Part shown: positions 54,496-58,580 of the stretch, piece after piece
How positions within the stretch are numbered: position 1 is the first letter of the stretch
Layout: each line of letters begins with the position of its first letter
Assembly: GCF_057098645.1 (NCBI RefSeq)
Contig: NZ_CM169472.1
Reading direction: 5' to 3' (one strand)
DNA: 64,000 nucleotides
The notes under the pieces: model-generated
Seen by the model: only the letters and a program-made list of their open reading frames with translations
The model's database searches: none
Told to the model about the DNA's origin: nothing
Position numbers and translations under genes: made by a program

Positions 54496-56217
54496 ATGTC
54501 TAATAAAATCTTTACGCATTCCCTACCTATGCGCTATGCCGATTTTCCAACGCTGGTTGATGCTTTGGACTACGCCGCTCTGAGTAGCGCTGGAATGAAT
54601 TTTTATGACAGACGTTGCCAACTTGAAGATCAACTGGAATATCAGACGTTAAAAGCGCGTGCCGAAGCTGGTGCGAAGCGGTTGTTATCGCTGAACCTGA
54701 AAAAAGGCGATCGCGTGGCACTGATTGCCGAAACCAGTAGCGGGTTCGTAGAGGCTTTTTTTGCCTGCCAGTATGCCGGCTTAGTCGCCGTCCCGTTGGC
54801 GATTCCAATGGGCGTTGGTCAGCGGGATTCCTGGAGCGCCAAATTGCAGGGTTTACTGGCAAGTTGCCAGCCCGCAGCCATTATCACTGGTGATGAGTGG
54901 TTGCCACTGGTCAATGCCGCGACGCATGACAACCCCGAATTACATGTTTTAAGCCACGCCTGGTTTAAGGCATTACCGGAAGCCGATGTTGCGCTCCAGC
55001 GTCCAGTTCCGAACGATATCGCCTACCTCCAGTACACCTCCGGCAGCACCCGTTTTCCCCGTGGCGTCATTATCACCCATCGCGAAGTGATGGCTAATCT
55101 ACGTGCTATAAGCCACGACGGCATTAAATTACGCCCTGGCGACCGCTGCGTCTCCTGGCTGCCTTTCTACCATGATATGGGACGGGTCGGCTTTCTCCTG
55201 ACCCCCGTCGCCACGCAACTTTCAGTAGATTATTTGCGCACTCAGGATTTTGCCATGCGTCCTCTGCAATGGCTTAAATTGATCAGTAAAAATCGCGGCA
55301 CCGTTTCCGTTGCGCCGCCGTTTGGCTATGAATTGTGCCAGCGCCGCGTGAATGAAAAAGATCTCGCTGAACTGGATCTTTCCTGCTGGCGCGTCGCTGG
55401 TATTGGTGCAGAACCCATCTCCGCAGAACAACTCCATCAATTCGCTGAATGTTTCCGTCAGGTTAACTTTGACAATAAAACTTTCATGCCGTGCTACGGA
55501 CTGGCAGAAAATGCGCTGGCTGTCAGCTTCTCTGATGAAGCCTCCGGGGTTGTGGTTAACGAAGTGGATCGCGACATCCTCGAATATCAGGGTAAAGCCG
55601 TCGCGCCGGGTGCAGAGACACGCGCCGTATCGACTTTCGTCAACTGCGGCAAAGCGTTGCCGGAACATGGTATTGAAATCCGCAATGAAGCAGGTATGCC
55701 GGTCGCGGAACGTGTGGTAGGCCATATTTGCATCTCCGGTCCCAGTCTGATGAGCGGTTACTTTGGCGACCAGGCTTCGCAAGACGAGATTGCCGCGACG
55801 GGCTGGTTAGACACTGGCGACCTCGGTTATCTGCTGGACGGTTATCTGTATGTCACCGGACGCATTAAAGATCTGATTATTATTCGTGGCCGTAATATCT
55901 GGCCGCAGGATATTGAATATATAGCGGAACAGGAACCGGAAATTCATTCTGGCGATGCGATTGCTTTTGTTACCGCCCAGGAAAAAATCATTTTGCAGAT
56001 CCAGTGTCGGATCAGCGATGAAGAACGTCGCGGGCAGCTTATCCACGCGCTGGCAGCACGGATCCAAAGCGAATTTGGCGTGACCGCGGCTATCGATCTG
56101 TTGCCGCCCCACAGCATTCCCCGAACGTCCTCCGGCAAGCCTGCCCGTGCGGAAGCGAAAAAACGTTATCAGAAGGCTTATGCTGCAAGCCTTCATGTGC
56201 AGGAATCCCTGGCATGA
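54496..56217 (+). CDS. Fatty acyl-AMP ligase / acyl-CoA synthetase-family adenylating enzyme
   Basis: About 573 aa; AMP-binding motif YTSGSTRFPRGV; C-terminal ...GKP... region. Confidence 0.8.
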   Translation: MSNKIFTHSLPMRYADFPTLVDALDYAALSSAGMNFYDRRCQLEDQLEYQTLKARAEAGAKRLLSLNLKKGDRVALIAETSSGFVEAFFACQYAGLVAVPLAIPMGVGQRDSWSAKLQGLLASCQPAAIITGDEWLPLVNAATHDNPELHVLSHAWFKALPEADVALQRPVPNDIAYLQYTSGSTRFPRGVIITHREVMANLRAISHDGIKLRPGDRCVSWLPFYHDMGRVGFLLTPVATQLSVDYLRTQDFAMRPLQWLKLISKNRGTVSVAPPFGYELCQRRVNEKDLAELDLSCWRVAGIGAEPISAEQLHQFAECFRQVNFDNKTFMPCYGLAENALAVSFSDEASGVVVNEVDRDILEYQGKAVAPGAETRAVSTFVNCGKALPEHGIEIRNEAGMPVAERVVGHICISGPSLMSGYFGDQASQDEIAATGWLDTGDLGYLLDGYLYVTGRIKDLIIIRGRNIWPQDIEYIAEQEPEIHSGDAIAFVTAQEKIILQIQCRISDEERRGQLIHALAARIQSEFGVTAAIDLLPPHSIPRTSSGKPARAEAKKRYQKAYAASLHVQESLA

Positions 56218-57128
56218 ATCAAACTGTCGCGGTGACGGGCGCTACCGGTTTTATCGGTAAATATATTATCGATAACCTGCTCGCCCGCGGCTTTCACGTT
56301 CGCGCATTGACGCGTACTGCCCGCGCTCACGTCAATGACAATCTCACTTGGGTGCGCGGTTCGCTGGAAGATACTCATTCACTTAGCGAGCTGGTTGCCG
56401 GAGCCAGCGCGGTGGTTCATTGCGCCGGACAAGTGCGCGGGCACAAAGAAGAGATTTTCACCCGCTGTAACGTTGACGGCAGTCTGCGCCTGATGCAGGC
56501 GGCAAAAAAGAGCGGTTTTTGCCAACGTTTTCTGTTTATCTCTTCGCTGGCGGCGCGCCATCCCGAACTCTCCTGGTACGCAAATTCCAAATACGTCGCC
56601 GAACAACGGCTGACTGCAATGGCTGGCAAAATTACGCTGGGCGTTTTTCGCCCGACAGCCGTGTATGGTCCCGGCGATAAAGAGTTAAAACCGCTGTTTG
56701 ATTGGATGCTGCGCGGCCTGCTGCCACGACTTGGTGCGCCAGATACACAACTCTCTTTCCTGCACGTCACCGATTTTGCGCAAGCAGTGGGTCAGTGGTT
56801 AAGCGCCGAAACTGTACAGACGCAAACCTATGAATTATGCGATGGCGTCGCTGGCGGCTATGACTGGCAACACGTACGACAGCTTGCCGCCGACGCCCGT
56901 TGTGGTTCTGTGCGGATGGTTGGCATTCCTCTGCCGGTACTCACCTGCCTTGCGGATATCAGTACTGCGTTGAGTCGCCTGGCAGGTAAAGAACCTATGC
57001 TGACCCGCTCGAAAATTCGTGAATTAACCCACGCCGACTGGTCGGCAAGTAATAACCGTATTTCTGAAGATATTAATTGGTTTCCCGGGATTAGCCTGGA
57101 ACACGCATTACGCAACGGGCTATTTTGA
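56214..57128 (+). CDS. NAD(P)-dependent epimerase/dehydratase-family (extended SDR) oxidoreductase
   Basis: 304 aa; N-terminal GATGFIG Rossmann motif; 4 bp overlap with the upstream stop. Confidence 0.8.
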   Translation: MNQTVAVTGATGFIGKYIIDNLLARGFHVRALTRTARAHVNDNLTWVRGSLEDTHSLSELVAGASAVVHCAGQVRGHKEEIFTRCNVDGSLRLMQAAKKSGFCQRFLFISSLAARHPELSWYANSKYVAEQRLTAMAGKITLGVFRPTAVYGPGDKELKPLFDWMLRGLLPRLGAPDTQLSFLHVTDFAQAVGQWLSAETVQTQTYELCDGVAGGYDWQHVRQLAADARCGSVRMVGIPLPVLTCLADISTALSRLAGKEPMLTRSKIRELTHADWSASNNRISEDINWFPGISLEHALRNGLF

Positions 57129-57159
57129 TTGTCTTGTTTAAAGGTGTGTTAACGTTTCT

Positions 57160-57408
57160 ATGGTAAATCGTGAAATAGTAATGGATTACATCCTTTCCTG
57201 TTTACAGGATTTGGTCGAAAACGGTGTGGAAATTAAGCCCGACAGCGATCTCGTCAACGATCTTGGCCTGGAGTCGATCAAAGTGATGGATCTCTTAATG
57301 ATGCTGGAAGACAGATTCGATATTTCCATTCCTATTAATATTCTGCTGGATGTCAAAACCCCTGCGCAATTAATGGAAACTCTACTTCCATGGCTGGAGA
57401 ATAAATAA
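57160..57408 (+). CDS. Dedicated acyl carrier protein
   Basis: 82 aa with phosphopantetheine attachment motif DLGLESIKVMDL. Confidence 0.75.
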   Translation: MVNREIVMDYILSCLQDLVENGVEIKPDSDLVNDLGLESIKVMDLLMMLEDRFDISIPINILLDVKTPAQLMETLLPWLENK

Positions 57409-58580
57409 TGGGGCTATACGATAAATATGCGCGCCTTGCTGGCGAGCGACTGCAATTTAGTGACAACGGGTTAACACCGTTTGGCACCTGTATTGATGAA
57501 GTGTATTCCGCCACCGAAGGCCGGATCGGCAATAAAAAAGTGATTCTGGCCGGGACCAATAATTATCTCGGTTTAACCTTTAATCATGATGCCATCGCCG
57601 AAGGTCAGGCAGCGTTAGCGGCCCAAGGCACCGGCACCACCGGTTCTCGTATGGCAAACGGCAGTTATGCGCCGCACCTGGCGTTAGAGAAAGAGATTGC
57701 CGAGTTTTTCAATCGCCCTACCGCTATCGTTTTTTCAACCGGTTATACCGCTAATTTAGGCGTCATCAGCGCACTTGCCGACCATAACGCCGTGGTGTTA
57801 CTGGATGCCGACAGCCACGCCAGTATTTATGACGCCTGTTCTCTCGGTGGCGCGGAAATTATTCGTTTCCGCCATAACGATGCTAAAGATCTGGAACGGC
57901 GCATGGTTCGCCTCGGTGAACGGGCGAAAGAGGCGATTATCATCGTTGAGGGTATCTACAGCATGCTCGGTGACGTTGCGCCGCTGGCGGAAATTGTTGA
58001 TATCAAACGTCGTCTCGGTGGTTATTTGATTGTCGATGAAGCGCATTCGTTTGGCGTGTTAGGCGCAACGGGGCGCGGACTGGCTGAAGCTGTCGGCGTT
58101 GAAGATGATGTGGATATTATCGTTGGCACCTTCAGTAAAAGTCTGGCCTCGATTGGCGGTTTTGCTGTCGGTTCGGAAGCGATGGAAGTGCTGCGCTACG
58201 GCAGCCGCCCGTATATTTTTACCGCCTCTCCTTCTCCGTCCTGCATTGCGACCGTGCGCTCGTCGTTAAGAACCATTGCCACACAACCAGAGCTGCGGCA
58301 AAAGCTGATGGATAACGCCAACCATCTGTATGACGGTCTGCAAAAACTGGGTTATGAGTTAAGTTCACATATTAGTCCGGTAGTGCCGGTAATAATCGGT
58401 TCGAAAGAGGAAGGTTTACGCATCTGGCGCGAGCTTATTTCGCTGGGCGTTTATGTGAATCTTATCCTGCCACCTGCCGCGCCTGCAGGCATCACGCTGC
58501 TGCGCTGTAGCGTAAACGCTGCCCACAGTCGTGAGCAAATCGATGCCATCATTCAGGCATTTGCTACTCTGAAGCAGTAA
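57408..58580 (+). CDS. PLP-dependent alpha-oxoamine synthase (BioF/Kbl/serine-palmitoyltransferase family)
   Basis: 390 aa; PLP lysine context GTFSKSLASIGG; His in DEAHSFG; start overlaps the ACP stop. Confidence 0.8.
   Translation: MGLYDKYARLAGERLQFSDNGLTPFGTCIDEVYSATEGRIGNKKVILAGTNNYLGLTFNHDAIAEGQAALAAQGTGTTGSRMANGSYAPHLALEKEIAEFFNRPTAIVFSTGYTANLGVISALADHNAVVLLDADSHASIYDACSLGGAEIIRFRHNDAKDLERRMVRLGERAKEAIIIVEGIYSMLGDVAPLAEIVDIKRRLGGYLIVDEAHSFGVLGATGRGLAEAVGVEDDVDIIVGTFSKSLASIGGFAVGSEAMEVLRYGSRPYIFTASPSPSCIATVRSSLRTIATQPELRQKLMDNANHLYDGLQKLGYELSSHISPVVPVIIGSKEEGLRIWRELISLGVYVNLILPPAAPAGITLLRCSVNAAHSREQIDAIIQAFATLKQ

Follow-up and report, generated by a model that had tools for sequence, protein, structure and literature searches.

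The closest described counterparts of the genes considered here are those for dihydroceramide synthesis in Caulobacter crescentus and Escherichia coli BL21(DE3), and it is only in Caulobacter and E. coli that the five dihydroceramide genes have been found in one cluster (Padilla-Gomez et al. 2022, PMC9386255). The Caulobacter genes are aasR (CC_1165), epi/cerR (CC_1164), acpR (CC_1163), spt (CC_1162) and aca/bcerS (CC_1154); the BL21(DE3) locus is listed as aca/yghO (ECD_02850), aasR (ECD_02851), epi (ECD_02852), acpR (ECD_02853) and spt (ECD_02854) (PMC9386255). Published identities between the E. coli and Caulobacter proteins are 53% for Spt, 44% for Aca/YghO (CC_1154), 42% for AasR, 41% for AcpR and 34% for Epi (CC_1164), with coverage of 61-98% (PMC9386255 supplement). 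A dedicated AcpR/AasR pair and dependence on an acyl carrier protein (ACP) are traits of the alpha-, beta- and gammaproteobacterial Spt group; in Sphingomonadaceae aasR lies far from acpR-spt, whereas in E. coli the genes are clustered (PMC9386255). Here we describe a four-gene set at positions 54496-58580 of a 64,000-nucleotide (nt) stretch of E. coli DNA (contig NZ_CM169472.1 of assembly GCF_057098645.1), the whole of which we call the window. The locus has the same enzyme set and logic as that of C. crescentus and is the same locus as ECD_02850-ECD_02854, with identical gene order and flanks. We read it, with a probability of about 90%, as orthologous to the AcpR-dependent cluster with which other proteobacteria synthesize ceramide (a sphingolipid). 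The four genes, and the divergent gene beside them, are as follows.

54496..56217, + strand: aasR, fatty acyl-AMP ligase (FAAL) or acyl-AcpR synthetase (the protein EcFAAL), 573 amino acids (aa)
56214..57128, + strand: SDR gene, extended short-chain dehydrogenase/reductase (SDR) of the NAD-dependent epimerase/dehydratase family, CerR/Epi homologue, 304 aa
57160..57408, + strand: acpR, dedicated acyl carrier protein, 82 aa
57408..58580, + strand: spt, serine palmitoyltransferase, a pyridoxal phosphate (PLP)-dependent alpha-oxoamine synthase (AOS), 390 aa
52983..54125, - strand: yghO, a pseudogene here; homologue of Caulobacter bCerS/Aca (ceramide synthase N-acyltransferase)

The sequence-only reading that drew attention to this stretch had described four co-directional and translationally coupled genes. 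An open reading frame (ORF) scan of the window bears out the arrangement, since all four ORFs are intact and lie on the + strand at these coordinates. Coupling is seen at two of the three junctions, where ligase and SDR genes overlap by 4 nt (ATGA) and ACP and spt genes by 1 nt (TAATG), but not at the third, where a 31-nt gap separates the SDR and ACP genes. The four motifs quoted in that reading are all present: YTSGSTRFPRGV at aa 180 of the ligase, GATGFIG at aa 9 of the SDR, DLGLESIKVMDL at aa 34 of AcpR and GTFSKSLASIGG at aa 240 of Spt. RefSeq names the genes yghO (pseudogene, internal stop), fatty acyl-AMP ligase, NAD-dependent epimerase/dehydratase family protein, acyl carrier protein and spt and, continuing 3' of spt, lptG, lptF, YtfJ family, hypothetical, 'lipopolysaccharide biosynthesis protein' (yghQ), yghR, yghS, yghT and pitB.

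Placement of the AOS carries much of the argument. The protein encoded at 57408-58580 scores 600.1 bits against the NCBIfam equivalog SerpalmtaseBetaP (NF047599; cut-off, 500) and falls below the cut-offs of the models for bioF (334 bits; cut-off, 426), Kbl (298; 460), ALAS (220; 339) and the CqsA-type autoinducer synthase (221; 428). Among proteins of known structure, the Sphingomonas paucimobilis and S. wittichii enzymes are the closest and align over nearly the full length (2JG2, 377 bits; 2X8U, 374 bits), followed by Sphingobacterium SPT (265 bits), cysteate acyltransferase (207 bits), Kbl (approximately 204 bits), BioF (176-182 bits), ALAS (at most 172 bits) and the CqsA type (124 bits). 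The catalytic residues are kept, with H137, D210, H213, K244 and R366 aligning to H159, D231, H234, K265 and R390 of SpSPT, and Lys244 being the PLP lysine. Since the Spt model is passed and the BioF and Kbl models are failed, the outcome that had been named as fatal to the sequence-only reading, a firm position inside the BioF or Kbl clade, did not materialize. That the AOS is a redundant BioF/Kbl paralogue, surrounded by unrelated fatty-acid or sugar-nucleotide enzymes, has a probability that we regard as close to nil: some database entries do name cluster members '8-amino-7-oxononanoate synthase', but the family scores, the preservation of the five-gene arrangement in distant bacteria and direct enzymology on BL21 Spt (PMC9386255) all speak against it. 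The enzyme assayed in that study, ECD_02854, is identical to the window protein at 388 of 390 residues (99.5%).

Comparison with the Bacteroides group led to a narrower result. The sequence-only reading had likened the locus to the ACP-dependent Spt logic of both Caulobacter and Bacteroides; the likeness to Caulobacter stands, but the Bacteroides-type enzymes form a separate Spt subgroup (PMC9386255). The Bacteroides/Sphingobacterium enzymes (3A2B, 8GUH) catalyze the same reaction and belong to the same fold family, with a match of 265 bits, whereas window Spt reaches 340 bits against the NCBIfam model for the Bacteroides type, whose cut-off is 640. As a separate observation, a 443-aa 'eukprot' entry (P0047) shares 98% identity with E. 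coli Spt and has an ACP domain fused at its N-terminus; most likely, bacterial sequence has contaminated a eukaryotic data set, or acpR and spt were fused there in gene calling.

The other three proteins are consistent with this placement. AasR scores 872 bits against the NCBIfam FAAL model NF006624 (cut-off, 600), as against 101 bits for the FadD model (cut-off, 884), and matches the EcFAAL crystal structure 3PBK over residues 1-573 with 1,298 bits and 5 differences (99% identical), one of them at the start Met, which is paired with a Leu in the construct used for crystallization. Window AasR and 3PBK are, in effect, the same protein. The annotation pipeline PGAP takes an internal ATG at 54529 as the aasR start in this strain and the ATG at 54496 in Nissle; the 3PBK construct aligns from residue 1. 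Identity to BL21 ECD_02851 is 555 of 562 residues (98.8%). The SDR has, in addition to its GATGFIG motif, the YxxxK pair YANSK at aa 122; its orthologues in Hafnia and Citrobacter match Pfam Epimerase/3Beta_HSD, and its top PDB relatives include NDUFA9 subunits. It is 97.0% identical (295 of 304 residues) to ECD_02852, and an SDR gene lies between aasR and acpR in Hafnia, in Citrobacter and in a distant locus (L012) where gene order is the same and the SDR homologue is 44.5% identical. AcpR is identical to ECD_02853 at all 82 residues and shares the accession WP_000248097.1. The serine for attachment of 4'-phosphopantetheine is Ser39 (DLGLES), and all matches of AcpR to ACP-family hidden Markov models fall below the housekeeping cut-offs. 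A gene for an Sfp-type 4'-phosphopantetheinyl transferase (PPTase) adjoins the cluster in Hafnia (L005, 4570-5226) and in a second distant locus (L011, 5185-5808); as the E. coli block is without a PPTase gene, priming of AcpR must fall to a PPTase from another part of the genome.

The sequence-only reading knew of no characterization of such a pathway in E. coli, and here it was mistaken, as AasR, AcpR and Spt of BL21(DE3) have been assayed (PMC9386255) and the ligase structure is available as 3PBK. Padilla-Gomez et al. found that AcpREc is labelled by beta-alanine in vivo and hence carries 4'-phosphopantetheine (PMC9386255). SPTEc converted 14C-serine to a product that co-migrated with 3-oxo-sphinganine and preferred palmitoyl-AcpR over the CoA and AcpP thioesters, and the reaction in vitro also gave several unidentified lipid products (PMC9386255). 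Co-expression of AasREc, AcpREc and SPTEc led to the in vivo formation of 3-oxo-sphinganine, with AasREc being specific for its own AcpR (PMC9386255). When BL21 made or was supplied with 3-oxo-sphinganine, compounds migrating like sphinganine and ceramide appeared, which the authors tentatively credit to ECD_02852 and ECD_02850, their proposed reductase and (as YghO) N-acyltransferase; this suggests that the chromosomal downstream genes can be active (PMC9386255). In a separate literature, EcFAAL was crystallized with lauroyl- and myristoyl-adenylate, its CoA pocket was found to be blocked and acyl transfer to EcACP was observed (Zhang et al. 2011, as relayed by PMC8460268 and PMC11837247). 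The word 'sphingolipid' occurs 0 times in either of these two FAAL papers, neither of which makes the link, and the structural and sphingolipid literatures are thus worth joining. The four-gene cluster is already known, being named in RefSeq with three of its proteins assayed and one crystallized. The locus carries little weight as a discovery; which lipid is made in natural E. coli, and when, stays of interest. What we add is its prevalence, the O145:H28 changes, the recognition that the ligase is EcFAAL/3PBK, two fold assignments (tandem-GNAT and CHAD-like) and an Enterobacterales-specific tailoring set.

Taken together, the family scores and the BL21 enzymology support the functional reading of the four genes (activation of a fatty acid, an ACP dedicated to the pathway, PLP-dependent condensation with serine and, as judged by family membership, a probable ketoreductase), and the following pathway can be proposed. 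AasR would adenylate a free medium- or long-chain fatty acid and load the acyl group onto the 4'-phosphopantetheine of AcpR Ser39, the acyl group going to AcpR since AasR is unable to use CoA. Spt, with PLP on Lys244, would then catalyze the decarboxylating condensation of acyl-AcpR with L-serine to yield 3-oxo-sphinganine. YghO would add an amide-linked acyl chain and the SDR would reduce the 3-keto group, in an order that is disputed between two Caulobacter groups (as relayed by PMC9386255, PMC11087976 and PMC11324152). Finally, a second LptF/LptG pair (LptF2/LptG2) and a MOP-family flippase encoded nearby would probably carry the finished lipid to the outer membrane, as suggested by synteny alone. 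The first two of these steps are experimentally shown for proteins that are 98.8-100% identical to AasR, AcpR and Spt of the window.

For yghO, which the sequence-only reading had offered as a possible N-acyltransferase gene, homology, a tandem-GNAT model and gene context point to such an activity, but the window copy itself is a pseudogene, which that reading missed. No Pfam or NCBIfam model detects YghO, a family of 1,128 clusters (50% identity) at E ≤ 1e-30. An AlphaFold2 model of the intact allele, built with a 79-sequence alignment, has a pLDDT of 96.2 and two GNAT domains; Foldseek matched it to tandem GNATs at E values of 1e-14 to 1e-16, the best being the clavulanate-pathway protein 2wpw (7.5e-16), with further matches to GlmA, MAB_4324, MshD, Eis and FemX. 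Context outside Enterobacterales was judged from the three contigs with at least 10 kb beside a close YghO homologue (43-49% identical), all metagenome-assembled and from unrelated bacteria; several other representatives of the family lie on contigs of 2-4.5 kb or have no DNA, and their context is uninformative. The yghO homologue was associated with sphingolipid genes on all three contigs (L010, L011 and L012). The E. coli design is repeated in L012, where the yghO-like gene is divergent from FAAL-SDR-ACP-Spt genes with an LptF/LptG pair downstream (44-54% identity). In L011, genes for a FAAL, an SDR and a PPTase are divergent from the yghO-like gene and LptF/G genes are also present, while in L010 an LptF/G pair and genes for diacylglycerol kinase (DAGK) and a Tam41-like protein lie beside the yghO-like gene. 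An LptF/G pair is also found near the yghO homologue of L007, and a more distant homologue (L009, 35% identity) has no sphingolipid neighbours. The presence of yghO homologues beside sphingolipid genes supports assignment of YghO as a probable N-acyltransferase independently of the published BLAST table.

Several observations weigh against assignment of the locus to ceramide synthesis, beginning with Spt itself. Arg378 of SpSPT (RPPATP loop), which we take from Sphingomonas structural work to be a contact of the serine carboxylate, is replaced by Leu354 in the window protein (at approximately 58467-58469). Hafnia and Citrobacter share the Leu of E. coli at this position, and the distant L012 homologue has Phe there; as it varies among Spt homologues, the Arg is no general feature of the group and lacking it is no bar to membership. 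The residue may bear on the use of acyl-ACP in place of acyl-CoA or on the choice of amino acid. The substitution is nevertheless one of the points in favour of a different product, with the AOS using glycine or alanine (to give a 1-deoxy base) or cysteate (to give a sulfonolipid), or making an alpha-hydroxyketone signal of the CqsA type. The AOS family is promiscuous, Spt gave additional products in vitro, and FAAL-ACP pairs often serve as loaders in natural-product pathways (PMC8460268, PMC11837247). We nonetheless think such a product very improbable: the near-identical BL21 Spt puts L-[14C]serine into the 3-oxo-sphinganine-like product (PMC9386255), the scores for cysteate acyltransferase and the CqsA type lie well below those for SPT, and there are no polyketide synthase or nonribosomal peptide synthetase genes near the E. 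coli, Hafnia or Citrobacter loci.

Also on this side of the balance, we infer the roles of the E. coli SDR and YghO from genetically proven Caulobacter homologues, fold and conserved synteny. None of the blocks in E. coli, Hafnia and Citrobacter has genes of the Caulobacter type for ceramide phosphoglycerate (DAGK_cat CpgB and its partners), and with these head-group genes missing, the Caulobacter model gives no prediction of the E. coli end product. In the distant loci L010, L011 and L012 such genes (DAGK_cat, Tam41-like, NTP_transf_3 and a metallophosphatase) do occur. Extracts and cells of BL21(DE3) with an empty vector, grown in LB medium, formed no 3-oxo-sphinganine (PMC9386255), so that the native cluster looks silent under laboratory conditions, and we infer silencing in laboratory media. 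In the searchable literature, no sphingolipid has been reported from any wild-type E. coli, no conditions that induce the operon and no head group are reported for the E. coli pathway, and there is nothing that ties yghQ, yghR, yghS or yghT to sphingolipids.

Two changes in the window add to these points. The first is that codon 116 of yghO is TGA (53778-53780), a Trp codon in BL21, and is flagged by PGAP as an 'internal stop'; the stop falls inside the first GNAT domain, and the window and BL21 proteins otherwise agree closely (376 of 380 residues, 98.9%, W116→*). Almost every other genome, those of Nissle and BL21 included, has an unbroken gene, and the TGA allele, sought as an exact 61-mer, occurs in 26 of the 4,530 E. 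coli genomes that hold the segment, with those among the matches listed being O145, O145:H28 or untyped. The second is L230R in AasR (codon 55183-55185), which gives FYHDMGRVG instead of FYHDMGLVG in a motif where all six other homologues have Leu (Nissle, BL21, Hafnia, Citrobacter and two distant loci at approximately 45% identity). Arg230 adjoins the pocket residue M231 (3PBK numbering), which is named in the FAAL eLife paper as lining the obstructed CoA pocket; 3PBK itself has Leu at position 230, as does BL21, in which yghO and aasR are both intact. The R allele, again as an exact 61-mer, is present in 26 genomes, likewise O145, O145:H28 or untyped among the matches listed, and all five of those listed also carry the yghO TGA. 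Two changes in one pathway and one lineage look like relaxed selection, and with the yghO stop and L230R ceramide synthesis is probably broken in this strain: judged from the alleles, its pathway probably cannot reach ceramide and may make nothing at all. Inactivation specific to the O145:H28 lineage of Shiga toxin-producing E. coli would provide a natural mutant for comparison.

It is possible, although we are inclined to doubt it, that the locus is cryptic or decaying in this strain, with the genes as we read them and no product, the operon being silent, yghO truncated and AasR damaged. The two changes and the absence of native 3-oxo-sphinganine in BL21, whose cluster is intact, favour this explanation, as does K-12, which has lost the whole core by an IS5-linked deletion with no known defect. 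In K-12 (L013, 1584-4949) an IS5 element lies between yghO and a C-terminally truncated yghQ and the genes from aasR to that for the CHAD-like protein are missing, a deletion that accounts for absence of the pathway from the K-12 literature. Conversely, the remaining genes, twelve from aasR to yghT, all have unbroken ORFs, damage by L230R is a prediction from conservation, and BL21 given 3-oxo-sphinganine does form the sphinganine-like and ceramide-like compounds (PMC9386255). The cluster is also kept in other genera and widely in E. coli: at least 80% of the stretch 52900-63600 (10.7 kb) is found in 4,062 of 5,426 complete genomes (approximately 75%) and the ligase segment in 4,107. Such wide retention argues for selection somewhere in nature.

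Ceramide synthesis remains our preferred reading for the cluster as a whole, and about three-quarters of sequenced E. coli have an apparently complete ceramide pathway plus an Lpt-like exporter of their own. Carriers include Nissle, ST131-type strains, S88 and BL21, and not K-12. The DNA identity of the cluster is 95.7-98% among the full-length matches listed, and the window differs from E. coli O145 RM9872 by 4 mismatches over 52900-63600. The pathway genes make up the core of a block of 13 genes, yghO to yghT, flanked in E. coli by glcC on one side and by pitB beyond yghT. In Hafnia and Citrobacter amalonaticus the 13 genes, from a yghO-like gene to the three P-loop genes, follow one another as in E. 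coli, again with pitB next to them, and their proteins are 62-86% identical; as the left flanks differ between genera, the block travels or is retained as a whole. Its further features in the window are as follows.

54126..54495, no strand: AT-rich stretch of 370 bp between the divergent genes yghO and aasR; presumed promoter/regulatory region
58583..58617, + strand: GC-rich hairpin where spt and the lptG-like gene converge; likely bidirectional terminator
58615..59694, - strand: LptG-like permease (LptG2), second copy; TIGR04408, 309 bits (cut-off, 240)
59691..60761, - strand: LptF-like permease (LptF2), second copy; TIGR04407, 319 bits (cut-off, 230)
60792..61352, - strand: YtfJ-family protein; TIGR01626, 212 bits (cut-off, 151); Enterobacterales-specific module
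61364..62188, - strand: 274-aa protein, no family assigned; predicted CHAD-like all-helical fold; named members nearly all from Enterobacterales
62188..63537, - strand: yghQ, MOP/Wzx-type flippase-family membrane protein, full length 449 aa
63583..64000, - strand: yghR, runs off the window end; first of three paralogous P-loop kinase-like genes

LptF2 matches 11 solved LptF chains from several species with just 77-114 bits, and these low scores mark it as a diverged paralogue. Caulobacter has LptF2/G2/C2 and a flippase in its sphingolipid region, and LptF2/G2 are proposed there to export sphingolipids (as relayed by PMC9386255, PMC11087976 and PMC11324152); E. coli has the second LptF/LptG and a flippase nearby, but no LptC2 was seen. 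In place of Caulobacter-type head-group genes, Enterobacterales have those for YtfJ, a CHAD-like protein, the MOP-family YghQ and three P-loop kinase-like paralogues. The YtfJ-family gene keeps its position in Hafnia and Citrobacter, the 274-aa protein has no Pfam or NCBIfam match, and YghQ has a Pfam Polysacc_synt match on its orthologues and a weak MOP flippase match. The yghR, yghS and yghT genes (RM9872 record L001, 13684-16053) are mutual paralogues, 33-46% identical, at the end of the block. RefSeq calls two of them 'dTMP kinase', a name that looks like over-annotation as their scores of 23-32 bits are far under the TIGR00041 cut-off of 83. We also considered YghR, YghS and YghT as stand-ins for the ceramide kinase CpgB, a member of the DAG-kinase family that has a GGDG motif; this idea was unsupported, the three proteins having just weak dTMP-kinase-like P-loop matches.

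A bolder proposal, which we put forward as a speculation with the odds clearly against it, is that the 13-gene module of Enterobacterales is distinct and makes a complex sphingolipid that has so far escaped notice and may be rich in phosphate, and that most natural E. coli would export via LptF2/LptG2 to their outer membrane. The tailoring half of the block (YtfJ, the CHAD-like protein with its predicted polyphosphate-binding fold, the MOP flippase and the three P-loop proteins) would then replace the phosphoglycerate genes of Caulobacter, a suggestion that we make with equal reserve. If this were true, loss of the core from K-12 and silence of the operon in laboratory media would explain why the lipid has been missed.

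The putative control regions of the block have few distinguishing features. GC content falls to 0.33 at 54000-54499, compared with approximately 0.52 in the flanks. The 370-bp region between yghO and aasR was not richer in promoter-like sites than shuffled sequence, the one weak sigma-70-like site (54344-54371) being not above chance, and no direct or inverted repeats were found there. Nor does this region contain a Pho box, for which the sole match in the window at no more than 3 mismatches (42657) is at chance level. An Rfam scan of 52900-64000 gave nothing above threshold, with three sub-threshold chance matches. The hairpin 3' of spt has a 16-pair stem of which 10 pairs are GC.

Two observations outside the block complete the comparison with RM9872. 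At approximately 52079-52110, between glcD and glcC, a poly-T run differs in length by one base from that in the RM9872 record, in which glcF is annotated as frameshifted; these differences may be homopolymer sequencing errors or real variation. At 17797-41750, approximately 21 kb between inverted IS3 copies (17797-19108 and 40431-41750) is absent from this position in RM9872, which marks the window as derived from a relative of RM9872 and not from that very assembly; the best matches of these 21 kb are genomes of the O103:H2 type, in which the region carries Ag43, IS66, YfjI and 3-hydroxybenzoate (mhb) genes.

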